From NCBI GenBank assembly GCA_963734275.1, contig CAVTGO010000013.1, positions 128,552 to 192,551 of the forward strand: a stretch of 64,000 nucleotides of DNA, read 5' to 3'. This DNA comes from an uncultured Actinomycetes bacterium. GTDB lineage: Bacteria > Actinomycetota > UBA4738 > HRBIN12. The position numbers and the translations under genes were made by a program. Shown in pieces: positions 14,911 to 34,325 of the stretch. The notes under the pieces were generated by a model that made no database searches, had not been told where the DNA came from, and was given only the letters and a program-made list of their open reading frames with translations. The stretch's first letter is position 1. Each line of letters begins with the position of its first letter.

Positions 14911-15570
14911 ATGAGAGAAGACCTCGAGATCCTGAAGCAAGGCCTGATCGGCGCGGAGCGCGACGCGGCCGTCGGCGCCGTTCAACGCCTCGTGGACTCG
15001 GGGATGGACCCGAAGGCGATCATGGAGGACGGCATGGCCGTCGCCATGTTCGACCTCGGCGAGATGTGGAAGCGCGGCGAGGTGTTCCTGCCCGAGGTCG
15101 TGGCCTCGGCCGCGATCTTCAAGATGTGCAACGCGATCGTGGAGCCGGCGCTCCTCGCGCAGCGACAGCCGGGGGACGAGCGGGCCGCGCTGGTGCTCCT
15201 CGCGACGGTGAAGGGCGACCTGCACGACCTCGGCAAGAACATGGTTGGTGCGATGCTGCGTACGTCCGGGTTCGAGGTGACCGATCTCGGCAAGGACGTG
15301 TCCGCGGACACGCTGATCGAGAAGATCACCGAGCTGAGCCCGCAGATCGTCGGGCTCTCGGCGCTCCTCACCACGACGGTCCCGTACCAGGAGACGGTCA
15401 TCCGCAAGCTCGAGGCGGCCGGCCTGCGCGACTCGGTCAAGGTGATGGTCGGAGGCGCGCCCGTCACGCCGGAGTGGGCCGACAAGATCGGCGCAGACGG
15501 CTACGCGAACAACGCGCCCGAGGCCGTCGAGGTCGCCCGCAAGCTCGTCGGGCTGGCCCAAACAGCGTGA
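14911..15570 (+). CDS. cobalamin-binding corrinoid protein (MtgC/MttC-like)
   Basis: B12-binding motifs DLHDLGKN (DxHxxG), SALLTTT and MVGGA. GAGGAG RBS. 219 aa. Confidence 0.85.
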   Translation: MREDLEILKQGLIGAERDAAVGAVQRLVDSGMDPKAIMEDGMAVAMFDLGEMWKRGEVFLPEVVASAAIFKMCNAIVEPALLAQRQPGDERAALVLLATVKGDLHDLGKNMVGAMLRTSGFEVTDLGKDVSADTLIEKITELSPQIVGLSALLTTTVPYQETVIRKLEAAGLRDSVKVMVGGAPVTPEWADKIGADGYANNAPEAVEVARKLVGLAQTA

Positions 15571-16430
15571 CCGTGGTCGCGACCACCGTCCTGCGCGGCC
15601 GGGAGGCCGAGGTCAGGATCGGCGACGAGCATCCGTTCGCGATCGTCGGCGAGCGGATCAACCCCACCGGCCGTGCGCGGCTGACCGAGGAGCTCGTCGC
15701 CGGCGACATGACGACGGTGCGGGCCGACGCGCTCGCGCAGGTGGAGGCCGGCGCGCGGATCGTCGACGTGAACGCGGGGATCCCGGGGTTCGACGAGGCC
15801 GAGATGCTCGCGAACGTCGTGCGCGCGGTGACCGAGGTCGTGGGCGTCCCGCTCTGCATCGACTCCTCCACGCCCGCGGTTCTCGAGGCCGTCCTGCCGA
15901 TCGTCCCGGGCAAGCCGCTCGTGAACTCGGTGACCGCCGAGCAGCACTCGCTCGAGCGCCTGCTCCCGCTGATCGCGCGGCACGGCGCGGCGATGATCGG
16001 GATGGCGAACGACGAGGAGGGCATCTCGATCGACCCGCAGGTGCGGCTGAAGGCCGCCCGCAAGGTCGTCGAGGCCGCCGAAGCGCACGGGATCGCGCGC
16101 GAGGACGTGGTGATCGACCCGCTCGCGATGCCGATCGGCGCCGAGCCCCGCGCGGCGACCGCGATGGTCGAGACGATCCGGCTGATCCGCGAGGAGCTCG
16201 GCGTAAACGTCTCCTGCGGCGCCTCGAACATCTCATTCGGCATGCCCGACCGTCCGGCGATCGACGCGTCGTTCCTGACGTTCGCGATCCAGGCCGGCAT
16301 GAACCTCGCCATCACGAACCCGCTGCACGAGCGGGTCCGCAAGGCGGTCCTCGCAGCGGACCTGATGCTCGGTCGCGACGCGCACGGCGCGGCGTGGATC
16401 GCCGCGCACCGCGCCGAGCTCAGACGGTAG
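15567..16430 (+). CDS. methylcorrinoid:tetrahydrofolate methyltransferase (pterin-binding domain, MtgA/MtrH-like)
   Basis: GTGA start/stop overlap with the corrinoid gene. Pterin-binding fold signatures (IVDVNAG, GMANDEEG, NISFGMP). Confidence 0.8.
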   Translation: MTVVATTVLRGREAEVRIGDEHPFAIVGERINPTGRARLTEELVAGDMTTVRADALAQVEAGARIVDVNAGIPGFDEAEMLANVVRAVTEVVGVPLCIDSSTPAVLEAVLPIVPGKPLVNSVTAEQHSLERLLPLIARHGAAMIGMANDEEGISIDPQVRLKAARKVVEAAEAHGIAREDVVIDPLAMPIGAEPRAATAMVETIRLIREELGVNVSCGASNISFGMPDRPAIDASFLTFAIQAGMNLAITNPLHERVRKAVLAADLMLGRDAHGAAWIAAHRAELRR

Positions 16431-16923
16431 AGCTGACCCCGATCCCTCCGCGGGTCTGCGCGCCGTACCGCTCCTTCTCCTTCTGGATGTCGAGCGGGCG
16501 CATGGCCATCTCGTCGGCGTCGGTGAGCCGGTCGGCCGGCACCAGCCAGCAGATCTCGAATTCGAGCCCGTCGGGGTCCTTGCCGTAGACGGCCTTCGTC
16601 GTCCCGTGGTCCGTCGCGCCCGTCATCGCGTTCCGGGACGCGAGCGCTGCCGCGATCCGCTCGAGCTCGTCCAGCGTGTCGACCTCCCAGGCGAGGTGGT
16701 ACAGCCCGACGGCCCCTCGGCCGGCCGGGGAGTCGGCGGCCCCCGACCCGATGGCGAACACGCCGAGGTCATGGTCGTTCGTGCTCGCCTCGGCCTGCAG
16801 GAACGCGGCCCGGCCCGGGATCTCGGTCTTCACGCGGAAGGCGAGCACGTCCCGGTAGAAGCCCACGGTCCGCTCGAGGTCCCGGACGTACAGCACGGCG
16901 TGGTTCAGCTGGGTGATGGGCAT
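16420..16923 (-). CDS. VOC-family protein (glyoxalase/bleomycin-resistance/extradiol dioxygenase fold)
   Basis: MPITQLNHAVLYVRDLERTVGFY... HLAWEV... The start was set at an internal Met; the ORF N-terminus is R/G-rich. Confidence 0.8.
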   Translation of the reverse strand: MPITQLNHAVLYVRDLERTVGFYRDVLAFRVKTEIPGRAAFLQAEASTNDHDLGVFAIGSGAADSPAGRGAVGLYHLAWEVDTLDELERIAAALASRNAMTGATDHGTTKAVYGKDPDGLEFEICWLVPADRLTDADEMAMRPLDIQKEKERYGAQTRGGIGVSSTV

Positions 16924-16982
16924 GACGGGTTCTCCTCTCGTTCGCTCGTGGAACGCGGGAGCCGCTCGGAATCTTCCGCCGG

Positions 16983-17870
16983 TCAGTACTCGGCGCGCAA
17001 GGCGAGCAGGACCGCGACCGTCGCCGCCACGGCGAGCAGGCCCGCCACGGCCACGAACCACGCGCCGAAGCCCGTGATGGCCAGCTCGATCGACAGCTCG
17101 TCGCTGAGCTGCTCGTAGACGTCCACCAGGCCACCGGCGGTCGTCGCGGTGAAGGCGGTGCCGCCGGTCGTCTCCGAGATCCGCGCCATCAGCTCGACGT
17201 TCGCGCCCGCAAGCGTGCCCGGCTCGAGGTCCTGTCCGAGCACGACCGTGTAGACGGGGACCTCCAGGTCGGCCGCGTGTGCCGCGGCGTCGTCGGGATG
17301 GACCAGGCTCCCCGTGTCCCGGCCGTCGGAGAGCACGATGATCGCCGCGGGCGACTCGCCCTGCTGGTCCCAGAGGGTCTCGATCGCGGCGACCGACGCC
17401 TCGATCCCGTCGCCGATCACGGTGCCCTCTCCCCGAGGCAGGTCGATCAGCCCGTCGATGACCTCCTGGTGCTCGGTCGTCGGGGGCACGAGCAGCTCGG
17501 CTTCGGCCGCGAAGGTCACCAGGCCGACCCGCAGGTCGCCCGGGAGGTCCTCGAGGAATGCGCGCGCCGCCTCCTTCGCGGCCTGGAGCCGCGTCGGCGC
17601 GACGTCGTCGCGGCTCATCGACTCGGAGATGTCGAGCACGAGCACGACCGTGCCCGGCGAGCCCTGAAGGAACCGGAACTGCGTGAAGGCGATCAGCAGC
17701 AGGATGCCGGCCCCGGCCATCAGGACGGCGGCGACACGCTTGGCCCGCCGTGCCCGGTCGATCTTGTTGCTCTTACGCCCCGGAGGCCCCTTCTGTGGCG
17801 GCCTGCCGAAGATCACCGCGACGGCCAGGATCGCCACGACCGAGATCACGAGGAGCACGAGCGCGGGCAC
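16983..17870 (-). CDS. von Willebrand factor A (VWA) domain membrane protein (BatA-like)
   Basis: N- and C-terminal TM helices. VWA MIDAS motif DISESMS. Confidence 0.8.
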   Translation of the reverse strand: MPALVLLVISVVAILAVAVIFGRPPQKGPPGRKSNKIDRARRAKRVAAVLMAGAGILLLIAFTQFRFLQGSPGTVVLVLDISESMSRDDVAPTRLQAAKEAARAFLEDLPGDLRVGLVTFAAEAELLVPPTTEHQEVIDGLIDLPRGEGTVIGDGIEASVAAIETLWDQQGESPAAIIVLSDGRDTGSLVHPDDAAAHAADLEVPVYTVVLGQDLEPGTLAGANVELMARISETTGGTAFTATTAGGLVDVYEQLSDELSIELAITGFGAWFVAVAGLLAVAATVAVLLALRAEY

Positions 17871-17972
17871 GTCCCAACGCTAGCAAGGGTTCCGTGAGGA
17901 CGGGGGGAGCCGGCCGGGACGCGAGACGCGGCAGCTCTGGCCGGGACCACGCGGGAGCCGACGCCCCGCGCT

Positions 17973-17987
17973 GTGACCTCAGGTCAC
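17973..17987. promoter_or_regulatory. perfect inverted repeat GTGACCT-c-AGGTCAC (candidate operator) in the divergent intergenic region upstream of the RACo/MttB operon
   Basis: 7-bp arms, 1-nt spacer. Lies about 100 nt upstream of the GTG start at 18084. Confidence 0.3.
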
Positions 17988-18083
17988 GAACCGCCGTTCC
18001 ACCATCGTTCCTGATAGTGGGACGATCGCCTCGTGAGAGGCGGCCGGACATGACCCTGGGTAAGATGCGGAGGCCGCGCTAAG

Positions 18084-20531
18084 GTGCGCAAGCTCCAGGT
18101 CACCTACCTGCCGAGCGGCAAGACCGCCCACGTCCCCGAGGGGACCACGCTGTTCAACGCGGCTCACTGGGCCGGCCTGCCGATCGAGTCCACCTGCGGG
18201 GGGCGGGGCACGTGCGGCAAGTGCAAGGTCCGCGTCGTCGAGGGCATCCACGAGCCGACGCCGGCGGACCACCGAAAGCTCCCCGGCCAGGAGTTGGACT
18301 CCGGCTGGAGGCTCTCGTGCCAGCTCGCGGTCTCGGTCGACGCGGTGTGCGAGGTGCCGAACCTCCAGGTCACGCCGAAGGCCGCGACGATGGGTGTGGG
18401 GCGGTTCGTCCTGCTCGAGCCCAACGTGCAGAAGGTCCTCGTCGCGGTCGAGCCGCCGTCGCTCGAGGACGCGCGGAGCCACATCCGCCGGCTGCTGGAC
18501 GCGCTCGACGCCGAGGGGCTCGAGCCCACCTTCGGCCCGGCCGTGCTGCCGCGCCTGGCGCTCGCGATGCGCGACGAGCCGACGGAGGTCACCGCCACGA
18601 TCGTCGGGGAGCACCTCGTGGACGTCGAGGCCGGCGACACGAGCGGCACGATGTTCGGCGTCTCGCTCGACATCGGCACGACGACCGTCGTGGCCACCCT
18701 CGTCGACCTCACCACCGGCGCCGCCGCGGCCGTCGAGTCGACGATCAACAGGCAGGCGCCCTTCGGCGCGGACGTCATCGCGCGGATGGGGCACGCGATG
18801 ACCGGCCCCCAGGCGATCGACGACCTCCGCGCCGCGGCCCTCGATACGGTCAACGGGCTCCTCGAGAGCGTGTGCGCGACGGGCGGCGTCGCGCTCGAGG
18901 ACGTCTACGAGGTGGTGGTCGTCGGCAACGCGACGATGCTGCACCTGTTCCTCGGCGTCGACCCGCGCTCGATCGCGCTGTCGCCGTTCGTCGCGACCTT
19001 CCTCGAGCCGCAGGATCTGCGAGCGTCCGAGCTCGGCGTCGAGATCCATCCCGACGGCCGGGTCGCGCTGTTTCCCTCGATCGGAGCCTACGTTGGGGCC
19101 GACATCGTGGGTGACGTCGTGGCGACCGGCCTCGCGCGCGAGGAGGCCGTGCGGCTTCTCGTGGACATCGGCACGAACGGCGAGATCGTGTGCGGCAGCT
19201 CCGAGCGCGCGGTCGCCACCGCCGCGCCCGCGGGCCCGGCGTTCGAGGGCGGCCAGATCCTCCACGGGATGCGGGCCACCGAGGGTGCGATCGAAGGGGT
19301 CGTGCTCGACGAGGACGGGGTGCGCCTGCAGGTGATCGGCGGGGACGTGGCGCCCCGCGGGATCTGCGGGTCCGGCCTGATCGACGCGGTGGCTCAGCTC
19401 CGCCTAGCCGGGCTGTTGAGGGACAACGGGATCCTCCTGTCGCGCGACGAGGCCACGCTCGCGGGGCACCCGCTCGCCGGCCGCCTGGTCGACCGCGACG
19501 GCATCCGGGCGTTCGAGCTCGCCGAGGGCGTCCTCCTCACCCAGCTCGACGTCCGCGAGCTCCAGTCGGCCAAGGGCGCAATCGCGACCGGCATCGAGGT
19601 TGCGATGGACGCTCTCGGCGTCGGGGCGGAGGATCTGGACGAGGTGATGCTGGCCGGGTCCTTCGGGACGTACATCGACCCCGAGAGCGCGCGCGTGCTG
19701 GGGCTCGTGCCGCCGGTCCCGGTCGAGCGGATCCGGGCGGTCGGCAACGCCGCCAGCGAGGGTGCCAAGATGGCCCTCATGTCCTTCCGCGAGCGCGAGG
19801 TGGCGTTCGAGCTCCCGGCGTTCGTCGAGTACCTGGAGCTCTCGGGCGCCCCGGACTTCAACGACCGCTTCATCCGCAACCTCGCGTTCCCCGAGCTCGA
19901 CAAGCGCGGAGCGCGCCGAGTGACCTCCACCGGCGCCTCGGTGGCGTTCATCGCGTGCGGCGCGGTCGCCAAGGACACGGCGGCGATCGTGAAGGAGCGA
20001 GGCTGGAGCGCCGACGTGCACGGCATCTCGAGCGACCTGCACATGACGCCGCTCGACATCGGTCCGGCCGTCGAGGAGAAGCTCCAGGCGTTGCTGCCGA
20101 GGTACGACCGCGTGATCGTCGTCTACGGCGACTGCGGGACCGGCGGACGCCTGGACGCCGTCCTCGAGAAGTACCCGGCGGTCCGTCCGGCGGGGTTCCA
20201 CTGCTTCCAGTGGTACGCCGGCGAGCTGTACCGCCGGTTCGAGGACGACATCGGCATCTACTTCCTCACCGACTGGCTGGTGCAGAACTGGGACCGCGCC
20301 GTGATCCACGGCCTCGGCCTGGACCGCTTCCCGTGGCTGAAGGACGAGTACTTCGGCAACCTCACGCGGATCCTGTTCGTCCGCCAGCATCCCGATCCGG
20401 GGCGCGAGACCCGCGCGCGGGAGATCGCCGAGTGGATGGGCAAGCCGCTCGAGATCCACGACCTCGGAACGAAGCCGCTCGAGGACCTGCTCGTGCCGCT
20501 CATGGAGGAGACCTCGGATGTTCACGCCTGA
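18084..20531 (+). CDS. corrinoid reductive activase (RACo-like: 2Fe-2S ferredoxin + ASKHA ATPase) fused to a C-terminal DUF1638-like domain
   Basis: N-terminal plant-type ferredoxin motif CGGRGTCGKCKV. Central ASKHA-like region (GVSLDIGTTTV..., LVDIGTNGEIV). C-terminal roughly 200 aa (YDRVIVVYGDCGTGG...FLTDWL) resembles DUF1638. GGAGG RBS. Confidence 0.85.
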   Translation: MRKLQVTYLPSGKTAHVPEGTTLFNAAHWAGLPIESTCGGRGTCGKCKVRVVEGIHEPTPADHRKLPGQELDSGWRLSCQLAVSVDAVCEVPNLQVTPKAATMGVGRFVLLEPNVQKVLVAVEPPSLEDARSHIRRLLDALDAEGLEPTFGPAVLPRLALAMRDEPTEVTATIVGEHLVDVEAGDTSGTMFGVSLDIGTTTVVATLVDLTTGAAAAVESTINRQAPFGADVIARMGHAMTGPQAIDDLRAAALDTVNGLLESVCATGGVALEDVYEVVVVGNATMLHLFLGVDPRSIALSPFVATFLEPQDLRASELGVEIHPDGRVALFPSIGAYVGADIVGDVVATGLAREEAVRLLVDIGTNGEIVCGSSERAVATAAPAGPAFEGGQILHGMRATEGAIEGVVLDEDGVRLQVIGGDVAPRGICGSGLIDAVAQLRLAGLLRDNGILLSRDEATLAGHPLAGRLVDRDGIRAFELAEGVLLTQLDVRELQSAKGAIATGIEVAMDALGVGAEDLDEVMLAGSFGTYIDPESARVLGLVPPVPVERIRAVGNAASEGAKMALMSFREREVAFELPAFVEYLELSGAPDFNDRFIRNLAFPELDKRGARRVTSTGASVAFIACGAVAKDTAAIVKERGWSADVHGISSDLHMTPLDIGPAVEEKLQALLPRYDRVIVVYGDCGTGGRLDAVLEKYPAVRPAGFHCFQWYAGELYRRFEDDIGIYFLTDWLVQNWDRAVIHGLGLDRFPWLKDEYFGNLTRILFVRQHPDPGRETRAREIAEWMGKPLEIHDLGTKPLEDLLVPLMEETSDVHA

Positions 20532-21966
20532 GACGGCCCCGGCGGTGCTGTCCGACGAGCAACTCGCCCAGATCCACGAGACCGCCATGCGGATCTGCGA
20601 GGAGATCGGCCTCGACGTCCTGCACGACGGCGCCCGCAAGCTCCTTTCCGAGGCCGGCCTGAAGGTCGACGGCGACCGCGTCCGGTTCGACCGCGGGTTC
20701 GTGGAGGAGCAGGTCGCGAAGGCCCCGGCGTCGTTCGGGCTGCGCGCGCGCAACCCCGAGCGCTCGCTCGAAGTCGGCACCGGCACGCCCGTGTGGATGA
20801 ACGTCGGCGGGCCGCCGTTCGCGAGCGACCTCGACGAGGGGCGCCGCAGCGGCCGCGCGCAGGACCACGACGCCCTCGTGAAGCTCACGCAGGCGACCGC
20901 GGTCCTGAACTGCGTCCAGACCGGTGCGGTCGAGTCGGTCGACCTCGACGTGACCACCCGGCATCTCGACATGGAGTACTCGACGATCCGGTGGTCGGAC
21001 AAGCCGTACGTGACCTACGGGACCAGCGGCCCGAAGGCGCGCGACGGGATCGCGATGGCGGAGATCGTGCACGGCGGGCGCGAGGCGATCGAGCGAACGC
21101 CGGCGCTCATTGGCGTCGTGAACCCGAACAGCCCGCTCGTGTGGGACTTCCGGATGACCGACGCCCTGATCGCGTGGGCCGAGGCCAACCAGCCGGTGAT
21201 CGTGACGCCGTTCCTGCTGGCCGGCGCGACGAGCCCGGTCTCGATGGCGGGCGGGTTCGCCCAGCAGGCCGCCGAGGCCCTCTCGGGCGTGGCGCTGGCG
21301 CAGCTCGTGCGGCCGGGCGCGCCCTGCCTGTACGGATCGTTCTTCACGGTGACCGACATGCGGACCGGCGCGCCGGCATTCGGGACGCCCGAGGGCGTGC
21401 TGGCCGTGCTGGCCGGGGCGCAGATCTCGCGTCGCTACGGGCTGCCGTTCCGCGGCGGCGGCGGGCTCTCGAGCTCGAACGCCGTGGACGCGCAGGCGGC
21501 GGCCGAGACCCAGAACATGCTGTGGGCGACGCTGCTCGCCGGCACCGACGTGGTGCTCCACGCCGCGGGCTGGCTCGAGGGCGGGCTGACCGCCTCGTTC
21601 GAGAAGTTCGCGATGGACGTGGAGCTCCTGTCGCAGTTCCGGCGGATGGGGCAGGGGATCGGGTTCGGCGACGAGGAGCTGGCGTTCGACGCGCTGAAGG
21701 CGCTCGGGCCCGGCGGCCTGTTCCTGGAGTCCGACCACACGATGGCGCACTTCAAGGAGTGGCTCACGATGAGCCCGATCTTCCAGACGCAGGACTTCGC
21801 GACGTGGGAGATGTCGGGCTCGGTCGGGCCGGCGGAGCTCGCCAATGCGCGGTGGAAGGAGCTGCTTGCGTCCTACGAGGACCCCGGGATCGACGGGGCC
21901 GTGGACGAGGAGCTCCGCGCCTACCTCGAGCGCCGCAAGCAGGATCCGCCCGAGGACGAGGACTGA
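20518..21966 (+). CDS. MttB-superfamily methyltransferase, non-pyrrolysine type (quaternary amine:corrinoid methyltransferase, MtgB-like)
   Basis: 482-aa uninterrupted ORF (no in-frame TAG). The TIM-barrel MttB family pattern is present throughout. Start overlaps the RACo gene end. Confidence 0.9.
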   Translation: MFTPETAPAVLSDEQLAQIHETAMRICEEIGLDVLHDGARKLLSEAGLKVDGDRVRFDRGFVEEQVAKAPASFGLRARNPERSLEVGTGTPVWMNVGGPPFASDLDEGRRSGRAQDHDALVKLTQATAVLNCVQTGAVESVDLDVTTRHLDMEYSTIRWSDKPYVTYGTSGPKARDGIAMAEIVHGGREAIERTPALIGVVNPNSPLVWDFRMTDALIAWAEANQPVIVTPFLLAGATSPVSMAGGFAQQAAEALSGVALAQLVRPGAPCLYGSFFTVTDMRTGAPAFGTPEGVLAVLAGAQISRRYGLPFRGGGGLSSSNAVDAQAAAETQNMLWATLLAGTDVVLHAAGWLEGGLTASFEKFAMDVELLSQFRRMGQGIGFGDEELAFDALKALGPGGLFLESDHTMAHFKEWLTMSPIFQTQDFATWEMSGSVGPAELANARWKELLASYEDPGIDGAVDEELRAYLERRKQDPPEDED

Positions 21967-22088
21967 GCGAGCTCTCCTCGCGCCTCGGTTCAGGTGGACG
22001 ATCACCGAGATCGCGACCCCGTTCCGACTTGCCCTGGCAGCCATCGGGGCGGGAGGATGGCCGGGTTCATCGTAGATAGGGGGAGGGT

Positions 22089-22553
22089 ATGCGCGGGAAG
22101 GCGAGGATCATGCTTGCTGCCGCCGGTATCTCGGCGGTCGTCCTGGTGATCTCGTTGATCACCGTATCGAGCGCGGCCACCGTCACGAGGATCCACGTGA
22201 TCGAGCACGCGACGACCGACGTCGTGATCGACACGGACGGTGACGGAGCCGACTCGACAGGAGACCTGCTCACGTTCCACAACGAGCTGTTCGACGCGGA
22301 GAACGGCGTGGTCGTCGGCACCAATCAGGGCGACTGCATCCGTATCGAGGTCGGCGTGAGCTGGGAATGCCGGTTCGTGAACTTCCTCGAGGGCGGCTCG
22401 ATCACGGTGGAAGGGCCGTTCCTGGATGCCGGGCCCTCGACCTTCGCTATCACCGGAGGGACCGGTGTCTTCCGCGACGCCGGGGGAACGATGCGCCTGA
22501 TCTCGAACGAGGACGGCACCGAGTTCGACTTCATCTTCCGGGTCATCCGGTAG
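22089..22553 (+). CDS. secreted allene-oxide-cyclase/dirigent-like beta-barrel protein, hypothetical
   Basis: N-terminal signal-anchor MRGKARIMLAAAGISAVVLV. ITGGTGVFRDAGG motif typical of AOC-barrel-like proteins. GGGGGAGGG RBS. Confidence 0.55.
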   Translation: MRGKARIMLAAAGISAVVLVISLITVSSAATVTRIHVIEHATTDVVIDTDGDGADSTGDLLTFHNELFDAENGVVVGTNQGDCIRIEVGVSWECRFVNFLEGGSITVEGPFLDAGPSTFAITGGTGVFRDAGGTMRLISNEDGTEFDFIFRVIR

Positions 22554-22747
22554 TCGCATCCGAGTCGTCGCCCGTCCTGTTGCGATGTTGAGCTTGAGCC
22601 ACGGGGTTCAGCTCGAGGTAACGTCGGCTCGGCGCCTCTTGGCCTGGATTGGGTCCCCTACGCGGACATCTGGTGGGGCATGCTCGCTTGCGCTCTCGAT
22701 CGAAACAGAACAGACTCGCGCTGGTTCGGTCATGGTCGAGCTCGGGT

Positions 22748-23578
22748 ATGGTCGAGGAAGGGGTCGGCGAAGGCGTGGAGCAGCCGCTTCCGGCGGAGCG
22801 TCACCGGCGCATCCAGGAGCTCCTTCGTGACCGTCGCGTCGTCCGCGTGTCGGCCCTCTCCGAGATCATGGGCGTCTCCGAGGTCACGGTCCGGCGCGAC
22901 CTCGAGGCCCTCGAGCGCCGCGGCCTCCTCGAGCGGACGCACGGAGGCGCAGTGCTCACCCAGCGGATGCGAGCTGAGCCCGCCTATCTCGACGCCGCGA
23001 ACAGCAACCCATCGGAGAAGCGGCAGATCGGGCAGACGGCGGCCGGGCTCGTGGAACCGGGGGACGCCGTCTACCTGAACGGCGGAACGACGACCCTCGA
23101 GGTGTTCCGCAATCTCCGCGCCCCGGGCGTTACGGTGATCACGAACCACGTCGGGATCGCGCTCGAGGCACCGGACCACGACATCGACCTCCTTCTCCTC
23201 GGAGGCCACTATCGGGCGCCGAGCAACTCGGTGGTCGGGCCGTTCGCTACCGACGCGCTCCGGCGGACGCACGCGACCAAGGCGTTCATCGGCGTCGAGG
23301 GGATCAGCATGGGCTCCGGTCTCACGACACCGGTCGCCGCCGAGGCGGAGATCGCGCGCGTGATGATCGAGCAGACCCGCGGCCGGGTCGCGGTCGTCGC
23401 CGACCACTCGAAGATCGGGACCGTGGCCGACTTCGTGATCGGACCGCTGGGTCAGGTCGATCGCCTGATCGTGGACGCTGGGATCGGCATGGAGATCCGT
23501 GACCAGTTCGTGGAGGCGGGCGTGGACGTGATCGTCGCCGGGGAGATGGCCGCGCCGGCTGGGGTGGGTCGTGGATAA
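22748..23578 (+). CDS. DeoR/GlpR-family transcriptional regulator
   Basis: N-terminal HTH (RHRRIQELLRDRRVVRVSALSEIMGVSEVTVRRDLEALE) and C-terminal DeoR sugar-binding domain. Confidence 0.8.
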   Translation: MVEEGVGEGVEQPLPAERHRRIQELLRDRRVVRVSALSEIMGVSEVTVRRDLEALERRGLLERTHGGAVLTQRMRAEPAYLDAANSNPSEKRQIGQTAAGLVEPGDAVYLNGGTTTLEVFRNLRAPGVTVITNHVGIALEAPDHDIDLLLLGGHYRAPSNSVVGPFATDALRRTHATKAFIGVEGISMGSGLTTPVAAEAEIARVMIEQTRGRVAVVADHSKIGTVADFVIGPLGQVDRLIVDAGIGMEIRDQFVEAGVDVIVAGEMAAPAGVGRG

Positions 23579-24340
23579 GCGGTCGTTCGAGGCCGAGGCC
23601 GATCGGCTGGTCCGAGGCGCGCGCGCGAATGACATCACGCTCCGCGTGCTCGGAGCGCTCGCGTTCCACCGGCGCTGCCCGAGCCACTCCCACCTACAAG
23701 AGCGCCTGAAGCGCGTCTACACGGACATCGACTTCGGAGGCTACGGGAAACAGGTCCGCCAGATCCGCGGGTTCCTGGTCGCCCAGGGCTACGTCGAGGA
23801 CGAGATGACGTACGTCGAGTCCCAGGGCTCGCGTCTGGTCCTGAACCATCCGGGCATCGGATTGCACATCGACGTGTTCCTCGACAAGCTCGAGTTCTGC
23901 CACACGGTCGACTGGAAGGGCCGACTGGAGCTCGATGACTGGACGATACCGCTCGCCGAGATGCTGCTGCAGAAGATGCAGATCGTCCAGATCAACGAGA
24001 AGGACCTGATCGACACGATCATGCTGCTCCTCGAGTTCCCGCTGACCGAGGACGACAGCGGCGTGAACATCGCGCGCGTCGCTGGTGTGTGCGCGAAGGA
24101 CTGGGGCTGGTGGCGCACGCTCACGATGAACCTCGGCAAGGTTCGGCAGATGGCCGGGCATACGAGCGATCTCGAGCCCGACGAGACAGCGCCGCGTGGC
24201 GGAACAGGTCCACGCCGCCCTCGAGCGGATCGAGAGCGAGCCGAAGTCGCGGGCGATGGAGGATGCGCGCCAAGGTGGGTGACCGCAAGAAGTGGTACCG
24301 AGAGGTGGGTGAGCTGGCCGACCGGGTCCAGGAGCTCTGA
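23571..24340 (+). CDS. hypothetical protein; the C-terminal third appears frameshifted
   Basis: The first roughly 200 aa are protein-like (MDKRSFEAEADRLV...). Beyond about 24170 the reading frame decays and protein-like sequence continues in other frames. Confidence 0.35.
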
Positions 24341-24343
24341 AGC

Positions 24344-25340
24344 GATGCCGCTGTTCAGGAAGGGGAAGCGAGGCGGGCCCGACGCGGCTGTTCTACGCGT
24401 GCGACATCCACGGGTCGGAGCCCACGTACCGCAAGTTCCTGAACGCCGCGAAGTTCTACGAGGTGGACGCCCTCATCTTCGGCGGCGACCTGATGGGCAA
24501 GCTCCTGATCCCGATGGTGCCGACGCGGGTGGGACGTGGCGCGCGCGCCTGCAGGGACAGGACCACCACATCACGAGCGGTGAGGGCATGAAGGAGTTCA
24601 AGCGGACGATGCAGACGCTCGGCTTCTACTGGCAGGAGATGGAGCCCGAGGAGTACGGGACCTACGTGGGAAAGCAGGATCGGATCGACGACCTCTTCGA
24701 CGTCCTGGCCAAGGAGCGCCTGGCTGAGTGGGTCGAACTCGCGGAGGAGCGGCTGGCCGGTACCCACGTCCGCGTCTTCCTGTGCGGGGGCAACGACGAC
24801 ACCGACGAGGTCCTGACCGCCCTGGATGAGGTCCCGCATGATCGGGTCGTGAACGCGGAGAATCGCGCCGTGCCGGTGGACGACGAGCACGTCGTGGTAA
24901 CGATCGGCTACTCGACACCGACGCCGTGGGAGACGCCGCGCGAGAGGACCGAGTCCGAGATCGCCGAGGTCATCGAGAAGGTGATGGCCGAGGTGCCGGA
25001 CCCGTCGCGGGCGGTCTTCAACTTCCATTGCCCGCCGCTGGACTCCGGTCTGGACACGTGCCTGAAGCTCGACGCCTCGGTCTGGCCGCCGACGCCCGTG
25101 CTCGTGAGCGGCCAGCCCGTCTATTACGGCGCCGGCTCCCAGGCGGTGGCCGACGCACTGACGAGCTACCAGCCTACGGTTGGGCTCCACGGCCACATCC
25201 ACGAGTCACGGGGGGTGAACGACTACGGCCGCACGCCCGCGTTCAACCCGGGAAGCGAGTACGGGGAGGGGGTGTTGCGGGGTCTGATCGTGGCGATCCG
25301 AGGAGGAGAGGTCATCGGGCACCAGTTCACGTCCGGGTAG
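24344..25340 (+). pseudogene. metallophosphoesterase (calcineurin-like) disrupted by at least 2 frameshifts
   Basis: MPLFRKGKRG... in one frame, then RLFYACDIHGSEP...GGDLMGK in another, then ...GLHGHIHESRG in a third. Confidence 0.55.
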
Positions 25341-25375
25341 CCCGCACCTGGAGGCGTCGAGCACAAGGAGGGGGG

Positions 25376-27014
25376 ATGGCAGAAGCCGTAGCGCCGCAGG
25401 TCTTCACCCGGCGGGCCTCGGGCCTCGTCCGAGTGATGTCGCCGTACTCGGCGTTCATCTACAACGTCCTGACGATGGGGATCATCTTCCCCTGGACCTA
25501 CGTGTGGGCTCCCACAGCGTTCCAGGGGTCGAACCTCGTCCTCGGCATCGCGTTCGCGTTCGTGTTCGAGCTGCCGATCGCGCTCGCCTACGTGTGGCTC
25601 GCGACCGCGTTGCCGAGCTCGGGCGGGGACTACGTGTTCCAGAGCCGGGTGTTCGGGGGCGGGTTCGGGTTCACGGTGGTGTTCGCGTTCTTCGTCGTCT
25701 GGATCCTGCAGTGGGTGGCGCTGTCGGGATGGCTCCTCGCCGTCCTCGGCATCGCGCCCACGTTCATCGGCCTCGGGGTGACGCTGGAAAACCAGACGCT
25801 GATCAACTGGGGGCGAACGTCGCGACGGCGAACGGGATCATCGTGATCAGCATCCTGAACGCGTTGCGTGTCGCTGGTCGCTGCTCGTGACCGGGTTCCG
25901 GAACTACGTCCGGTTCCAGTACGTGATGTGGTACGCGATCCTTGCCTCGTTCGCCGTGATGCTCCTGCTCTTCTTCACGACGAACCCAGGCGACGCTGCG
26001 GGCGAGGCTGGACGAGTTCGCGCTGGCCACGGGCGGCGCGCCGGACTTCTTCGAGACCGCGAGGGCGGCGGCGGCCGACGCGGGCGTGAACTTCAACCCG
26101 CCGTTCTGGCTCTTCGGGACGCTGATGGTCGCGCCGATCGCGTGGACGAGCCTGCAGTGGGCCACCTACTCAGTCGGAGCAGGGCGGCGAGATCAAGAAC
26201 GCCAACGTGTTCCGCAGCCAGGTCTTCATCATCGTCGGCTCGCTCGCCCTCACCGCGGGGCTCCTGATCCTGCTGGCGCTGGCGATGGGCAAGGGGATCG
26301 GGCAGGACGGGCATCCTGGTCGCGTCCTCCGGCTACTGGTACGGGGTCGCGGAGGCGACGCATCGCGGGGACCTTCATGATGCCCAACCTGATCGCGATC
26401 GGGCTCACGACCAGCCCGATCCTGATCGCGATCATCGGCATCGGGTACATCCTCAACTCGTTCCAGATCGTCTGTAACTGCTACATCGGGACGACGCGGA
26501 TCATGGTGGCGCAGGGGCTGGACGGGTTGCTGCCGGACTGGTTCGCACGGGTGCATCCGCGGTGGAAGACACCGGTGAACGCGCACATCGCCTACTTCCT
26601 GGCGGCGATCCCGGTGATCTGGGGCTACAACAAGATCGGGAGTGGGTGCGGTGGACGCTCGGCGTCACGTTCGCGAACGGCGCGGTGATGACGCTCTCTG
26701 CGCTGGCGGCGGCGCTCCTGCCGTACCGGGCGGCCAAGCTCTACGAGGCGTCGCCGGGGGCGCAGTACAAGGTCGGCAACACGCCGATGGTGACCGTGTT
26801 CGGGGCGCTCGGGTTCCTGTTCGGGGCCTTCATGGTGGGGTCGTTCCTGTTCGTGGAGGACCTCGGCCTGGCGTCCTCGAACGACGCCGTTCCCGTACTA
26901 CATCGTCCTGGGAACGGCGGTGTTCGGGCTGCTCGTGTACTGGTGATGCGGCAGGTCCGGGCGAGCGCCGGCCTCAAGGTCGAGTACGCGTTCCGGGAGA
27001 TCCCGCCGGAGTAG
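25376..27014 (+). pseudogene. APC-family amino acid/polyamine permease disrupted by at least 3 frameshifts
   Basis: TM-rich permease segments spread over ORFs 24926..25846, 25887..26267, 26086..26688 and 26562..27014 in three frames. AAGGAGGGGGG RBS before the ATG at 25376. Confidence 0.6.
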
Positions 27015-27084
27015 CGGGTAGCCGGACGCGGTGGTGGTGGGGCGGGGCCGTTGGCCCCGCCCCATCCGTCTCCGGGAGGGCTCG

Positions 27085-29535
27085 GTGACCGAACGGGTCC
27101 GCGCGGTCGTGATCGGCGGCGGCGTCGCCGGGTGCAGCGTCGCGCTGCACCTGGCTAAGGCCGGGCTGGACCGACGTGCTCCTGTTGGACAAGGGCGAGC
27201 TGACGAGCGGGTCCACGGCGCACGCGGCCGGGTTCGTCACGATGTTCAACCCCTCGCCGACGATGATGCGCGTTCCGCCGCTACTCGATCGAGCTGTACC
27301 GCGAGCTCGGGGTGTTCGAGACGGTCGGGAGCCTGCGGATCGCCTCGAGCGCCGAGTAGCTGCTAGAGCTGCAACGCGGGGTGTCCCGCGCGCGAGGGAT
27401 CGGCCTCGACGTCGAGCTCTGTCGGGCCCGACGAGACGCTGAGGCTGATGCCGGCGGCGAGCGCCGAGTCGCTCTTCGGGAGCGTCTGGGTGCCCGGCGA
27501 CGGCTTCCTCGACCCGCACACCGCGACGTACGCGCTCGCGGCGGCCGCGCGCGCGCTCGGGCGGCACGATCCGGACGGGAGCGCGCGTGACGGCGATCGA
27601 GCTCTCCGAGCGGCGGGAGGTGACCGCGATTGTCGTCGACGGCGAGCGGATCGAGTGCGAGGTCGTCGTGGACGCCGCCGGGATCTGGGCGCCGCGGGTC
27701 GCGGCGATGGTCGGGGCTCCGGGTCCCGTCGACGCCGGTCGACCACCAGCACATCGCGCTGAAGGCGGTGCCGGGGGTCGGAGCTGCCGCGCGACATGCC
27801 GTGCTTCCGCGACCCGGACAACCTCGTCTACGGGAAGTCCGAGGCCGGCGGCATCGTGTTCGGCGGGTACGAGCCCGATCCGGTCGCTCGATGGATCGAC
27901 GGCGCGCCCTGGGAGCACGGCGGCGCGCTCGCTGCCGCCGGACATGGATCGGTTCGAGCAGCTGCTGCGCGGCGCCGCCCGCCGGTTCCCCTTCATCGAG
28001 GACGCCGAGATCGTGAAGCTCGTCTGCCATCCCGACGCGATGACGCCCGACGCGAACCCGCTCGTCGGCCCGATCGCCGACGGTCCGCGGGCCTGTGGCT
28101 CGCGGCCGGGCTGTCGCTGAACGGCTTCGGTGGGGCCGGCGGGCTCGGCAAGGCGCTCGCCGAGTGGATCACGGCCGGCGAGACCGAGCTCGACCTCACC
28201 GCCGTACCGGCCGTGGCGGTTCGGGCGCGTGCACGAGGACGCCGGCTGGGTCGCGCGAGCTGGCGCGCGAGGCCTATCGCTACTACTACCTCCTGCGCTA
28301 TCCGTTCGATCACGACGAGTGGGGACGGCCGAAGCGCGTGTCGCCGCTGCACGGCCGGCTCCAGGAGCCGGCGCCGTGTTCCAGGCGAAGAACGGGTGGG
28401 AGCGCGCCGAGCGCTTCGAGCCGGGCGAGGCCGTGGCGGCGGGCCGGGCGCGGATCAGCGGGCGTTCGGGTGGGCGCGGCCGCCGTGGCTCGACCGGGTG
28501 GGCGAGGAGCATCGCGCGCGTCCGCGAGCGCGCCGGGTCTGTCGACCTGTCAGCTCGTTCGGGAAGATCGAGGTGGCCGGGCCGGACGCGCTCCGGCTGC
28601 TCGAACGGGCGGCGGCGAACCGCGTCGACCGGCCGGTGGGCTCGATCGTCTACTCGCCAGTTCCTCGATCGGCGGGGCGGGATCGTCGGCCGACGTCACG
28701 ATCGTCCGGCTCGCCGAGGACGGTTCCGCGTGGTCACCGGCGTCGGGCGACCGTCGACGGCGACCTCGGCTGGCTGCGGATGCACGTGCGTGACGGAGAC
28801 GGGCGCCGTCGAGCTCCGGGACGCGAGCGAGGAGCTCGCCGTGATCGCACTCTGGGGTCCGGCCGCTCGCGACGTCCTCGGCGGCGACGACCGAGGACGA
28901 CGTGTCGAACGAGGCCTTCCCGACCTGAGCGGCGCGAGCGCTGCGGATCGGTGCCGCGCCGGTACTGGGCCCAGCGGATCAGCTACGCCGGCGAGGCTCG
29001 GCTGGGAGCTGTGGGTCGAGCCGGCGGTGGGCGGTCCAGGCCTGGGACCGGCTGTGCGGCGGCGGGCGAACCGCTCGGTCTCGAGCCGTGCGGGTACCGG
29101 GCCTCGACGGCCTGCGCATCGAGCAGGGGTTCCGGTACCTCGGGACCGACCTCACCGCGGGCGACACGCCCGACGAGGCGGGGCTTGGCCTTCGTCGCGT
29201 TCGATCCCTCGAAGGACTTCGTCGGGCGCGACGCCGTCTTCGCCGCGCGCGAGGCGGGGCCGCCGACGCGGCGGCTGCGGACCCTGCTCGTTGGCGCAGG
29301 CTACGTCACGGCCTACGGGGGAGAGGCGGTGCACGCCGGCGACGAGGTGGTCGGGCGGGTGCGGAGCGTGCGCGTACGGCTACACCGTCGGACCGGAAGG
29401 TCGCGACTCGCCTACCTGCCGTCGGCCCTCGGCCCCGGCGATCGCGTGGAGGTGGAGGTGTTCGGCGAGCTGGTTCCGGCCGAGGTGGCCGAGGACGTCC
29501 TGGTGGATCCCGAGGGCAAGCGAGTGCGGAGCTGA
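27085..29535 (+). pseudogene. dimethylglycine dehydrogenase/oxidase-like (FAD oxidoreductase + GcvT-type folate domain), heavily frameshifted paralog of 30781..33214
   Basis: FAD motif VIGGGVAGCSVALHLAKAG, then LLDKGELTSGSTAHAAGF in the next frame; the GcvT-like C-terminus (FVGRDAVF..., ...VDPEGKRVRS) sits in further frames. Many single-nucleotide indels. Confidence 0.65.
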
Positions 29536-30444
29536 TGCCGACGATCGAGCAGGTCGTCCAGGCCGCGGCGACCTTCCGCGGCCGGCAGGTCGAGGTCTCC
29601 GAGCTCTCGGGCGGTCTCACCAACACGAACTACCTGGTGGATCGCCGACGGCGCGAAGTACGTGGTCCGCATCCCCGGACGCTCGACCGAGCTGCTCGCC
29701 GTCGACCGCGCGAACGAGCGCCACAACGCCGAGGCGGCGTCCACGACCGGGGTGTCGCCTCGGATCGTCGAGGTGCTCGAGGACGTGGAACGTGATGATC
29801 ATGGAGTTCATCGAGGGGCAGACGATGTCGGCGGAGACGCTCCGCGCGCCCGAGCAGGTGCGCCGGATCGCGGCGTCGCTCCGGACGCTGCACGCCGCGC
29901 CGCGGTTCGCTGAAGGACTTCGACATGTTCCGGTTGACCGAGTTCTACCTGGGCGTCTGCGCCGAGCGCTCGGTCCGGATCCCCGACGGGTTCCGAGACC
30001 GCATGCCGACGACGTGGCCGATGATCGAGCGCGCGCTCGCCGCGAACCCCGTGGAGACCGTGCCCTGCCACAACGACCTGCTCGCCGAGAACTACATCGA
30101 CGACGGGTCGCAGCTGTGGATCGTCGACTTCGAGTACAGCGGGAACAACGACCCGTGCTTCGAGCTCGGCGACACCGCGCAGGAGTGCGGGTTCGACCAG
30201 GAGCTGCGGGCGGTGCTGTGCGAGGCCTACTTCGGCACGCGCCGCGAGGACCGGCTGGCGCGGATGGACCTTCAGGCGCGTGATGGCGGACGTCGGATGG
30301 ACCCTGTGGGCCGCGATCCAGGCCACGATCTCCACGATCGACTTCGACTTCTGGGGCTGGGCGGTGGAGCGGTGGGACCGGGCGGTGGCTGTCTTCGACT
30401 CGGACGACTTCGCTCGCTGGGTCCGCGCGTCGGCGGGAGGTTGA
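29535..30444 (+). pseudogene. APH/choline-kinase-family phosphotransferase, frameshifted paralog of 33217..34131
   Basis: SGGLTNTNYLV, CHNDLLAENYI and IVDFEYSGNNDPCFELG motifs lie in different frames. At least 4 frame changes. Confidence 0.6.
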
Positions 30445-30475
30445 CGCATCCGCGCCCGCGTCCGAGGGTGATGGC

Positions 30476-30775
30476 GTGCGCGTGATCGCGACCGGCGAGG
30501 CGGTCGAGTTCGTCCGCGACCACGGCGGGCGGGTGTTCGTCTGGCCCGTCGTGATGGATGTGCCCTCCGGCGGCGCCGTCGTCTTCACCTTGGAGGCGTC
30601 CACCGAGTCGCCGGGCGCGGCGCACGAGTTCGTTCGGTTCGGCGGCGAGGGGTTCGACGTGCTGATCGACGCGACGGGTCACGGCGTCCCCGATGAGCTG
30701 CACCTCGCGATCAAGGGCTGGCGCCGGAGGCAGATCCGCGCCTACTGGAACGGTAACTCGTTCGGCCGAGCCTGA
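30476..30775 (+). CDS. hypothetical small protein (99 aa)
   Basis: Intact ORF with GTG start and protein-like composition, between the two convergent modules. Confidence 0.35.
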   Translation: MRVIATGEAVEFVRDHGGRVFVWPVVMDVPSGGAVVFTLEASTESPGAAHEFVRFGGEGFDVLIDATGHGVPDELHLAIKGWRRRQIRAYWNGNSFGRA

Positions 30776-30780
30776 GCAGG

Positions 30781-33214: not shown

Positions 33215-33216
33215 GG

Positions 33217-34131
33217 CTAGAGGCCGGCCGCGGCGTCGGTCAGCCAGCGCTCGAACCGCTCGTCGGCCATCGTGCGGGCCAACCGGTCGAAATGGGTCTG
33301 CGCGTACGCCACGTAGTCGATCTCCAGGCTGGACAGGCCCTGCTGCACGACGCCCCACATCGCCTCGCGGAAGTCCGACATGACCCGCATCAGCCGCAGG
33401 CGGGCGCGGTGACCGTCGTGCACGTCGCCGAAGTAGAGACGGAGCATCGACTCCTGCGACTCCTCGGACAGGTCGTTGTTGATCGACAGGTTGCCGAGGT
33501 CGAAGAACGGGTCGCCCATCCCGGCGTACTCGTAGTCGACGAGCCACAGGTGTCCCTCGCCCCGCAGGAAGTTGTCCGAGAGCAGGTCGTTGTGACACGG
33601 GTGGACGGGCCGGGGCGTCCGGTTCAGCGCCTGCTCGATCCGCGAAGCGCGCGCCTGCGCATGGTCGAAGTCGGATGGCACGGCGACGTCCCGCTCGAGC
33701 GAGACCCGCCGGTAGTCCTCGACGATCCGGAAGCTGTCGAACGTCCAGTCGAGCTCGGGTCCGGAGTGGATCGTTCGGACGACGGCGACGACGTCGGCGA
33801 GCACGGCCTCGTCGTCCATGTCGCCTTCGGCGAGGGGCAGGCCCGGCACCCACCGTGTGACGAGGCACCCGAGCTCGGGCAGGTGCGCGATGACCTCGGG
33901 GGCGACGCCCGCCTCGGCGGCCGCGGATGCGGCCCGGTGCTCGGCGGTCCGGTCGATCCCGAGCAATTGCGTGTCCTTGCCCGGCAGGCGGAGGAAGAAG
34001 GTCTCGTGCCCGATCTCCACGAGGAAGTTCCGGTTGGTGCGTCCGGCCTCGATGGGCACGACACGCGTCTCGAGACCCGACCAGCCCGGAACCGCGTCGA
34101 TCGCCCGTGACACGTCCGGGTCGAGGTCCAC
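33217..34131 (-). CDS. APH/choline-ethanolamine-kinase-family phosphotransferase
   Basis: Intact 304 aa with Brenner motif HPCHNDLLSDNFL and LVDYEYAGMGDPFFDLG. GTG start; the stop lies 2 nt before the downstream DMGDH-like start. Confidence 0.8.
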   Translation of the reverse strand: MDLDPDVSRAIDAVPGWSGLETRVVPIEAGRTNRNFLVEIGHETFFLRLPGKDTQLLGIDRTAEHRAASAAAEAGVAPEVIAHLPELGCLVTRWVPGLPLAEGDMDDEAVLADVVAVVRTIHSGPELDWTFDSFRIVEDYRRVSLERDVAVPSDFDHAQARASRIEQALNRTPRPVHPCHNDLLSDNFLRGEGHLWLVDYEYAGMGDPFFDLGNLSINNDLSEESQESMLRLYFGDVHDGHRARLRLMRVMSDFREAMWGVVQQGLSSLEIDYVAYAQTHFDRLARTMADERFERWLTDAAAGL

Positions 34132-34274
34132 GACCCCGAACGGTACCTCGGGCGTTCGTTCCTGGTCAATCTCGACCGAACGCGTGCGTTCATTGCCCCG
34201 TCGCCTGTTCGTCCCTGACCGGATGCCGGCCCGACGGTTGACAGGCGCAAGCTCGCCGCTACACTCGACGGACC

Positions 34275-34325
34275 ATGACGAGGAAGAACTTCACCGAGCC
34301 GCTGGTCCTCGTACTTATCCGGTAG
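34275..34325 (+). CDS. ilvB leader peptide (MTRKNFTEPLVLVLIR), candidate attenuation sensor
   Basis: 16-codon ORF ending in six consecutive Leu/Val/Ile codons, directly upstream of a terminator hairpin and the ilv operon. Confidence 0.5.
   Translation: MTRKNFTEPLVLVLIR

Follow-up and report, generated by a model that had tools for sequence, protein, structure and literature searches.

Within a window of 64,000 nucleotides, the whole stretch of DNA that was analysed, an open reading frame (ORF) of 815 codons joins an ATP-dependent corrinoid reductive activase of the RACo/RamA type to a protein of the DUF1638 family (Table 1). The ORF is present, free of stop codons, as the initial annotation described it, the GC3 phase that reflects codon bias is unbroken along its entire length, and a 569,618-bp NCBI/ENA contig is the source of a deposited protein, P0511, with the same 815 aa. 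The N-terminal part was rightly assigned to a RACo-type activase, proteins that usually measure about 610 aa. Specifically, Pfam places Fer2 at residues 9-83 (E 6.5e-12), RACo_linker at 109-187, Raco_middle at 191-352 and RACo_C_ter at 356-607 (E 1e-71), with the linker, middle and ASKHA domains (PF17650, PF17651 and PF14574) in order and all above their gathering cut-offs. The [2Fe-2S] ferredoxin domain carries Cys38, Cys44, Cys47 and Cys79 in the spacing C-x5-C-x2-C-x31-C, PDB entry 3ZYY matches residues 3-599 (E 2.7e-105), and scores against the NCBIfam AcsV and RamA models fall short of the cut-offs. Members of the RACo family spend ATP to drive the energetically unfavourable reduction of Co(II) to Co(I). 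The last 200 or so residues had been likened to DUF1638, and the Pfam search bears this out, with a hit at residues 650-803 (E 1.5e-20; 74.2 bits, cut-off 27) that covers positions 4-161 of the 161 in the PF07796 profile.

The surrounding genes point to corrinoid-dependent methyl transfer. The MttB-superfamily gene begins inside the end of the 815-codon ORF, by exactly the overlap given in the initial annotation. Its product is matched by PF06253 over residues 9-476 (565 bits, E 1e-169), its 482 codons hold no in-frame amber, and against the pyrrolysine MttB equivalog TIGR02369 it reaches 289 bits, under the cut-off of 525. In the PDB, the product is closest to the uncharacterised 4YYC (E 2.8e-113); a match at about 3e-104 is to the glycine betaine methyltransferase (9YCE/2QNE). 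Upstream of the activase, a corrinoid protein that matches MtgC models under their cut-offs is followed by a pterin-binding methyltransferase that scores 298 bits against NCBIfam PRK07535 (cut-off 259).

Table 1 Features of the locus, in window coordinates
Feature	Position	Strand	Basis or remark
Cognate corrinoid protein, 219 aa, MtgC/MtbC-like	14911..15570	+	B12-binding_2 and B12-binding
Methyl-corrinoid:tetrahydrofolate methyltransferase, 287 aa	15567..16430	+	Pterin_bind; 4-nt overlap with corrinoid protein gene
815-codon ORF, RACo joined to DUF1638	18084..20531	+	GTG start, uninterrupted
RACo/RamA-like ATP-dependent corrinoid reductive activase	18084..19898	+	Pfam; equals residues 1-605 of 612-aa P0001
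Extra G, single-base insertion joining both genes	19899..19899	+	Comparison with ENA contig_58226 and a 90%-identical relative
GGAG, Shine-Dalgarno-like motif	19908..19911	+	8 nt upstream of ancestral DUF1638 start; read from sequence
Ancestral DUF1638 gene, 203 aa, GTG start	19920..20531	+	P0121 100% identical; PF07796; gene calls L001/L002
Non-pyrrolysine MttB-superfamily methyltransferase, MtgB-like, 482 aa	20518..21966	+	14-nt overlap with DUF1638 end

The 815-codon ORF stays open through one base only, an extra G that lies seven codons ahead of the ancestral RACo stop and outside any homopolymer (GAGCTC[G]ACAAGC, with the inserted base in brackets). With this base, as in the window, the junction reads GAGCTCGACAAGC; without it, the junction reads GAGCTCACAAGC, the RACo frame ends at the TGA at 19921-19923, and DUF1638 begins at the GTG at 19920. 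The ancestral RACo tail, TSAERAE followed by the stop, appears in the window in a frameshifted reading as DKRGARR. A public contig, contig_58226 of ENA ERZ25039588, is identical to the window over 16236-23853 with the extra G as the sole difference, and on it the activase (612 aa) and DUF1638 (203 aa) are called as separate genes with a GTGA overlap of 4 nt. The nearest activase homologue, P0001, is 100% identical over its shared residues and ends in TSAERAE-stop, and the last 203 residues of the ORF recur with 100% identity in P0121, a DUF1638 protein encoded on its own. The two-gene arrangement is found in the nearest relatives at both 99.9% and 90% nucleotide identity, and the 90% cluster has three members, two of them 612 aa long. 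Our results strongly suggest, with a probability of roughly 85%, that the ORF consists of two genes, ancestrally separate and translationally coupled, for a 612-aa RACo/RamA-type activase and a 203-aa DUF1638 protein, joined by a single G.

In relatives, the activase stop overlaps the DUF1638 start (ATGA/GTGA), which puts DUF1638 in the -1 frame. A +1 insertion in the last seven activase codons shifts the ribosome into the DUF1638 frame and through the old GTG start, so that the two proteins form a single chain of 815 aa, connected by some 15 residues of linker. The target for such an insertion is about 21 nt, and the insertion seen here leaves the RACo domains (to residue 607) and the whole of DUF1638 intact. 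The initial annotation had named a mis-joining of separate ORFs as the finding that would speak against a fusion, and in substance this is what the locus holds: there is an internal start with its own Shine-Dalgarno-like motif, but the stop was not overlooked, since it lies out of frame through the extra G. Programmed frameshifting was considered and dropped: nothing in the window calls for it, and in the relatives the stop overlaps the start, with no single continuous frame.

RACo and DUF1638 are separate in every relative examined, usually with an ATGA/GTGA overlap. A TGA stop overlaps an ATG or GTG start in 13 of the 17 related loci in which the junction was read, a set that includes Illumina-type assemblies, and the activase tails of P0002 and P0005 close with ERAE-stop. 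DUF1638 is absent from all 120 RACo homologues among the matches listed, and each of the 240 DUF1638 homologues among the matches listed stands alone, at lengths of 196-242 aa. Both domains are joined in just two of the best 150 of 1078 cluster representatives, P0246 and P0329, which were ruled out as true fusions on account of the Arg/Pro-rich out-of-frame stretches inside them; the sole joined ORF in 80 GTDB species loci, L012, was ruled out as a frameshift mosaic in which RACo, DUF1638 and MttB are each incomplete. The joined ORFs other than that of the window are frameshift mosaics in noisy assemblies, and no in-frame RACo-DUF1638 fusion with an intact linker was found among the listed homologues, the best 150 of the 1078 representatives or the 80 species loci. 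A further non-single architecture was seen in P0287, a putative ORF of DUF1638 and DAO.

The initial annotation had taken the fusion for a Rosetta stone that would hint at the function of DUF1638, and had proposed a survey of domain architectures; the survey returned no clean RACo-DUF1638 fusion in any of the three collections, and the joined form proved private to one assembly and made by a +1 insertion. Because the near-identical contig and all relatives lack the extra G, the join is not a conserved domain architecture. A conserved fusion, and with it a true Rosetta stone, would agree with the continuity of the ORF in the window and with the deposition of an identical 815-aa product as P0511, but it is extremely improbable when set against the absence of a clean fused homologue from 120+120+120 listed proteins, the best 150 representatives and the 80 species loci, the two genes of the nearest relatives, and a junction peptide, DKRGARR, that is the conserved tail read in a shifted frame.

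The extra G itself is probably an assembly (consensus) error. The background of indels relative to the public contig was estimated over window positions 10518-31996. Of these, 138 fall in 23854-31996, a stretch that begins 4 kb downstream of the junction, where they scatter two genes, an amino-acid permease gene and a dimethylglycine-dehydrogenase-like one, over different frames and create a second chance fusion, the ORF at 23571-25340. Outside 23.9-32 kb, the proteins of a relative align to the window genes without a change of frame, and a clean 13-kb stretch holds two indels, one intergenic and the other at the end of the activase gene. The pterin-binding methyltransferase carries three non-synonymous variants in the window, two of them at residues conserved in 46/52 and 50/52 relatives. 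On the public contig, the genes downstream are dimethylglycine-dehydrogenase-like, amino-acid permease and choline-kinase-like, and the first of these is itself split there into two calls (L002 16560-18302 and 18245-18982).

A mutation private to the strain is a possible, less favoured source of the extra G. In its fuller form, which we regard as tentative, the mutation is real and recent, and the strain makes a functional single-chain RACo-DUF1638, to which it may add free DUF1638 from the retained GTG and GGAG. The insertion does lie in a clean stretch, away from homopolymers and in a contig segment otherwise identical to its public counterpart; it falls within the few codons where a +1 shift does no harm, the window genes outside the indel-rich island are intact, and both indels of the clean 13 kb occupy positions tolerated by selection, as real variation would. 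The coupling of the two genes suggests, moreover, that both proteins already work together and so could tolerate a tether of about 15 residues. Yet the extra G is seen in one assembly only, at odds with the 612-aa majority of its cluster, and neither form of the junction, with or without the G, had a match in JGI metagenome contigs in two scans. The same assembly holds the many frame-breaking indels and the second chance fusion described above, comparable joined ORFs elsewhere are frameshift noise, and long ORFs tend to be selected as findings, which favours artefacts.

The converse error, a 1-nt deletion in the public contig that would leave the fused form as the true state of the population, is very improbable. 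The name of contig_58226 is in the metaFlye style, which we take to mean that it may come from a long-read assembly, and a long-read origin together with the split dimethylglycine-dehydrogenase-like gene would fit an error on that side. However, its TSAERAE-stop followed by GTG agrees with the tail and the overlap in many independent assemblies, short-read ones included, whereas the reading of the window agrees with none of the relatives. The public contig was therefore rejected as the faulty one, its reading being that of the relatives.

The DUF1638 residues Cys13, His41, Cys72 (in YGDCGTGG), Cys95 and the pair Thr117-Asp118 are conserved at 96-100% across 431 sequences and are all present in the window protein, where the first four correspond to residues 625, 653, 684 and 707 of the ORF. 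The AlphaFold model of DUF1638 is confident (pLDDT 93.5) and places each of these four just past a beta strand or where a helix begins. A fold search of the PDB with this model gave nothing at E 1e-3, the top TM-score being about 0.28 with ATCase/OTCase; sequence and profile searches of PDB sequences with DUF1638 gave no match, and NCBIfam has no DUF1638 model. For the full-length 815-aa chain, modelled with unpaired RACo and DUF1638 alignment rows, AlphaFold returned a mean pLDDT of 69.8 and a pTM of 0.48, with the ASKHA part below 50, a model unsuited to judging docking. The near-invariant Cys13/His41/Cys72/Cys95 and the confident model that lacks a structural relative in the PDB are new here, as is the conservation in Actinomycetota of translational coupling between DUF1638 and RACo.

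The initial annotation was right to place DUF1638 with corrinoid reactivation. Of the 54 species loci whose flanks are complete, 44 carry a RACo gene, 46 a corrinoid protein gene and 42 a pterin methyltransferase gene no more than 6 kb from DUF1638. Its description as a neighbour of MttB genes holds for 46% of loci, but the association is tighter with RACo (81%) and with the corrinoid protein (85%). DUF1638 may bind a metal or an Fe-S cluster through a Cys3-His site and act in electron entry to RACo or in its redox control, a role that we put forward tentatively. It is unlikely, though conceivable, that the extra G is real and that a soil actinobacterium runs a working single-chain RACo-DUF1638 in which DUF1638, with an alpha/beta fold not seen before, feeds or gates electrons through this site. 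If so, the single chain would be a natural demonstration of a 1:1 complex with the C terminus of RACo beside the N terminus of DUF1638.

The functional link between RACo and DUF1638 is real but already known. In Phaeobacter inhibens, mutants of DUF1638 and of a RamA-like protein are rescued by methionine (Price et al. 2018, PMC5764234), and the fitness of both genes is correlated with that of split methionine synthase genes, alongside phylogenetic co-occurrence (PMC5764234); DUF1638 is needed in that organism for cobalamin-dependent methionine synthesis (PMC5764234). In Ruegeria pomeroyi, both proteins, together with MtgBCD, reach higher abundance when the cells grow on N-osmolytes, glycine betaine among them, in a study that drew on the link again (PMC12478193). 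Our search of the literature on PF07796 and DUF4445/RACo yielded nothing to add to these two papers. The fusion itself, one base in one assembly, matters little next to a link that has been out since 2018. It does carry a caution for genome scans, in that a single indel turns ATGA/GTGA-overlapping genes into "fusion proteins", and a possible artefact of this kind already stands in public databases as the 815-aa P0511. Whether the insertion is real or not, the single chain with its natural linker could be a useful construct for expression and structural work.

Taken together, the genes suggest the following cycle. The MtgB-like MttB protein would take a methyl group from a quaternary amine (probably glycine betaine, judging from the gene context) and place it on the Co(I) form of the corrinoid protein, and the pterin-binding enzyme would hand this group to tetrahydrofolate, as its family membership implies. 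Oxidation of the cobalt to Co(II) would call on RACo, which, by analogy with characterised RACo and RamA proteins, would restore Co(I) with the help of ATP and its [2Fe-2S] cluster. DUF1638 would serve in this repair as a helper of RACo, in a stoichiometric ratio if the translational coupling is a guide, and its Cys3-His site could possibly hold the metal or Fe-S cluster through which electrons enter or RACo is controlled.

The activase shares its domain order ([2Fe-2S] ferredoxin, linker, middle and ASKHA) with RACo of Carboxydothermus hydrogenoformans (3ZYY; CoFeSP complex 4C1N). The client of the latter is CoFeSP of the acetyl-CoA pathway, whereas here it would be an MtgC-type corrinoid protein, and to our knowledge no DUF1638 partner has been described for the C. 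hydrogenoformans enzyme. The non-pyrrolysine MttB protein belongs to the same superfamily as MtgB of the Desulfitobacterium hafniense MtgB/MtgC/MtgA system (2QNE/9YCE), and the locus also has a pterin-binding methyltransferase, as that glycine betaine system does; by contrast with D. hafniense, the host lineage here is probably aerobic. A further parallel is with the alphaproteobacterial pairs, P. inhibens PGA1_c15200/PGA1_c13340 and R. pomeroyi SPO2041/SPO2162, which belong to the same RamA-like (DUF4445) and DUF1638 families and, like the pair described here, occur alongside a pterin-binding methyltransferase and a corrinoid protein. The two genes of these alphaproteobacteria, however, stand at separate loci, whereas in this uncultured high-GC actinobacterium and in other Actinomycetota they are adjacent with an ATGA/GTGA overlap, joined by a frameshift in one assembly only.

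Translation and Pfam bear out the initial annotation in its description of the 815-codon open reading frame: RACo domains followed by a DUF1638 domain, the C-terminal part scoring well above the family cut-off (table below). These features go far beyond chance. Third-position GC reaches 0.96, a single GC3 phase spans 17881 to 20280, and the ATG of the MttB-family gene does sit 14 nt within the end of the frame.

Features of the corrinoid methyltransferase locus in the window
Feature	Position	Strand	Remarks
Corrinoid protein, MtgC/MtbC-like	14911-15570		B12-binding_2 + B12-binding
Methyl-corrinoid:tetrahydrofolate methyltransferase (pterin-binding)	15567-16430		PRK07535 above cut-off
RACo-DUF1638 ORF	18084-20531	+	815 codons uninterrupted, GTG start
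Fer2	ORF residues 9-83		Pfam
RACo_linker	ORF residues 109-187		Pfam
Raco_middle	ORF residues 191-352		Pfam
RACo_C_ter	ORF residues 356-607		Pfam
DUF1638	ORF residues 650-803		Pfam, 74 bits (cut-off 27), E 1.5e-20
GGAG motif	19908-19911		8 nt 5' of the DUF1638 GTG
MttB-family protein, non-pyrrolysine	20518-21966		565 bits

The closest database match to the whole ORF (P0001) is just 612 aa long. Residues 1-605 are 100% identical, after which P0001 ends in ...NLAFPELTSAERAE-stop, unlike the window, which reads ...NLAFPELDKRGARRVTSTGAS.... P0001 derives from ENA ERZ25039588 contig_58226 (372,560 bp), a near-identical public contig on which RACo (612 aa) and DUF1638 (203 aa, P0121) are called as separate genes with a 4-nt overlap, followed by MttB with a 14-nt overlap identical to that of the window. 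Base-by-base comparison reveals one additional G in the window at position 19899 (GAGCTC[G]ACAAGC), the sole difference from contig_58226 across window 16236-23853; this G is likewise missing from a relative of ~90% identity, ERZ25039586 contig_80048. Minus the G, the RACo frame stops at TGA 19921-19923 and DUF1638 starts at GTG 19920-19922. Given the GTGA overlap of the two genes, inserting one base (+1) within the final seven RACo codons shifts reading exactly into the DUF1638 frame.

We favour an assembly consensus error as the source of the extra G, with a probability of about 60%. P0511 is the database entry for the fused 815-aa product; it derives from one NCBI/ENA contig of 569,618 bp, presumably the contig from which the window was taken, and the two remaining members of its 90% cluster are both 612 aa. 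Counted toward an error are the 440 substitutions and 138 indels that separate window 23854-31996 from contig_58226, where the indels break an amino-acid permease (~25376-27011) over frames 2/1/2/3, intact on the public contig, as well as dimethylglycine-dehydrogenase-like genes (~27085-29520). So is a second accidental fusion, the 589-aa ORF 23571-25340 (+), which corresponds to public-contig genes of 254 and 332 aa, free of Pfam matches, joined via a frameshifted segment at ~24185-24345. Finally, of three non-synonymous differences from the public contig in the window's pterin-binding methyltransferase, two, D93G (window 15844) and V143M (window 15993), strike positions conserved in 46/52 and 50/52 relatives; each is an error or a slightly harmful variant of the strain. 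A mutation private to this strain is a less probable but serious candidate: the G lies outside any homopolymer in a clean neighbourhood, beyond the 23.9-32 kb island the window's genes match a relative's proteins in single frames, and both indels of the clean 13 kb fall where selection would tolerate them. Any other origin is very improbable. Junction searches of JGI metagenome contigs returned neither variant, with or without the G.

The segment 23854-31996 is 5-8% divergent from contig_58226, between flanks that are 99.9-100% identical; its indels are mostly single-base and non-homopolymer, with insertions outnumbering deletions, and its substitutions are mainly C<->G. The pattern resembles a consensus built from mixed strains or at low coverage, within a variable island. 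On the species-level relative contig_80048 (L083 13903-14453), mttB is followed by one small gene and then by acetolactate synthase and ketol-acid reductoisomerase genes, so the window counterpart (~22000-34500), an AOC-like, DeoR, permease, dimethylglycine-dehydrogenase-like and choline-kinase-like block, is a variable island of roughly 12 kb. The gene at 22089-22553 (+), directly 3' of mttB, encodes a 154-aa protein with weak allene oxide cyclase/dirigent-like beta-barrel matches (PF06351 E 9e-8, PF18678), an unusual neighbour in a corrinoid methyltransferase operon. Contig_58226 likewise has frameshifts or pseudogenes: its dimethylglycine-dehydrogenase-like genes are split (L002 16560-18302 and 18245-18982; L002 20307-20777 and 21051-21449), DAO/FAO_M/GCV_T being called apart from the GCV_T/GCV_T_C that follows.

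Separate, overlapping genes are also the rule among relatives. The RACo TGA overlaps a DUF1638 ATG or GTG in 13 of 17 related loci with junctions read, comprising the public contig, six loci from the closest GTDB species and six other MAGs of Solirubrobacterales, Gaiellales and other Actinomycetota type; several bear short-read assembler names. The other four show a small gap (two) or are non-overlapping Chloroflexota loci (two). The RACo proteins P0002 and P0005 end in ...ERAE-stop, as on the public contig. PF07796 was found in none of the best 120 RACo homologues (564-670 aa), and the best 120 DUF1638 homologues and best 120 family-profile matches were all standalone (196-242 aa). HMMER, run over 1.84 billion cluster representatives, yielded 1078 DUF1638 proteins. 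Of the top 150, only P0246 and P0329 also carried RACo_C_ter; both contain long Arg/Pro-rich out-of-frame stretches and are frameshifted sequences. Across 80 GTDB species loci, stop-to-stop ORFs with both domains occurred in the window and in L012 only, the latter consisting of strings of partial RACo, DUF1638 and MttB pieces. Since none of these surveys gave a clean fusion, RACo-DUF1638 is not a conserved architecture, and false fusions of the same kind recur in noisy assemblies. Separately, the representative P0287 (355 aa) runs from a complete DUF1638 directly into a DAO-family FAD oxidoreductase N-terminus (...GSPETMTDFPSSAKAVVIGAGIVGNS...); in this clean-looking ORF a stop may have been lost or overlapped, or the fusion to a flavoprotein may be genuine.

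The initial annotation's domains and functional theme thus survive, but the fusion, a one-base frameshift private to the window assembly, has no value as independent Rosetta-stone evidence. The link between DUF1638 and corrinoid reactivation is real and already published. In Phaeobacter inhibens, fitness of DUF1638 and RamA-like genes correlates with that of split methionine synthase genes, methionine rescues the mutants, and the two genes co-occur across Alphaproteobacteria, the authors offering no specific function (PMC5764234); Ruegeria pomeroyi has higher levels of both proteins when it grows on N-osmolytes (PMC12478193). Our analysis adds neighbourhood counts, overlap-implied coupling, high DUF1638 conservation and near-invariant residues. 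Across 54 GTDB loci whose 6-kb flanks were complete, DUF1638 neighbours RACo (44/54), a corrinoid protein (46/54), a pterin methyltransferase (42/54) and MttB (25/54); its ties are with the activase and that enzyme's client rather than with MttB. An overlap of the ATGA/GTGA type implies that synthesis of RACo and DUF1638 is coupled and probably equimolar. Few proteins of the locus are as well conserved as DUF1638, which shares 96.6% identity with the L083 relative, versus 90.4% for RACo.

Across 431 sequences, Cys13, His41, Cys72 (YGDCGTGG), Cys95, His94 and Thr117-Asp118 are 96-100% conserved. In a confident AlphaFold model with an alpha/beta fold (pLDDT 93.5, pTM 0.88), each lies directly after a beta strand or at a helix start, a placement suggesting that they form one common site at the ligand-binding sheet edge; searching the PDB with the model gave nothing significant (best E 2e-3, TM about 0.28). 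RACo/RamA activases, presumably including the window RACo, use ATP-driven electron transfer to bring Co(II) back to Co(I). Our preferred but tentative mechanism is that DUF1638 may be a metal- or Fe-S-binding partner subunit delivering or gating electrons to the RACo [2Fe-2S] cluster; alternatively, it may be an adaptor with a structural zinc site that presents the corrinoid protein, or have a cofactor-handling role. That a natural single-chain activase-DUF1638 exists and DUF1638 is a new-fold redox subunit seems unlikely.

Glyoxalase-family and VWA-domain genes lie on the opposite strand (16420-17870, -) between the methyltransferase genes and RACo, an arrangement shared by contig_58226 and contig_80048. 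The nearest PDB entries to the MttB member are 4YYC and the glycine betaine methyltransferase MtgB (2QNE/9YCE), and the genes 3' of the cluster on the public contig (amino-acid permease, dimethylglycine-dehydrogenase-like and choline-kinase-like) would fit a quaternary amine substrate, glycine betaine or a related compound. The window RACo has all four [2Fe-2S] cysteines and is homologous over its full length to the solved Carboxydothermus activase 3ZYY (E 2.7e-105); the locus is an actinobacterial member of an already known kind of system.
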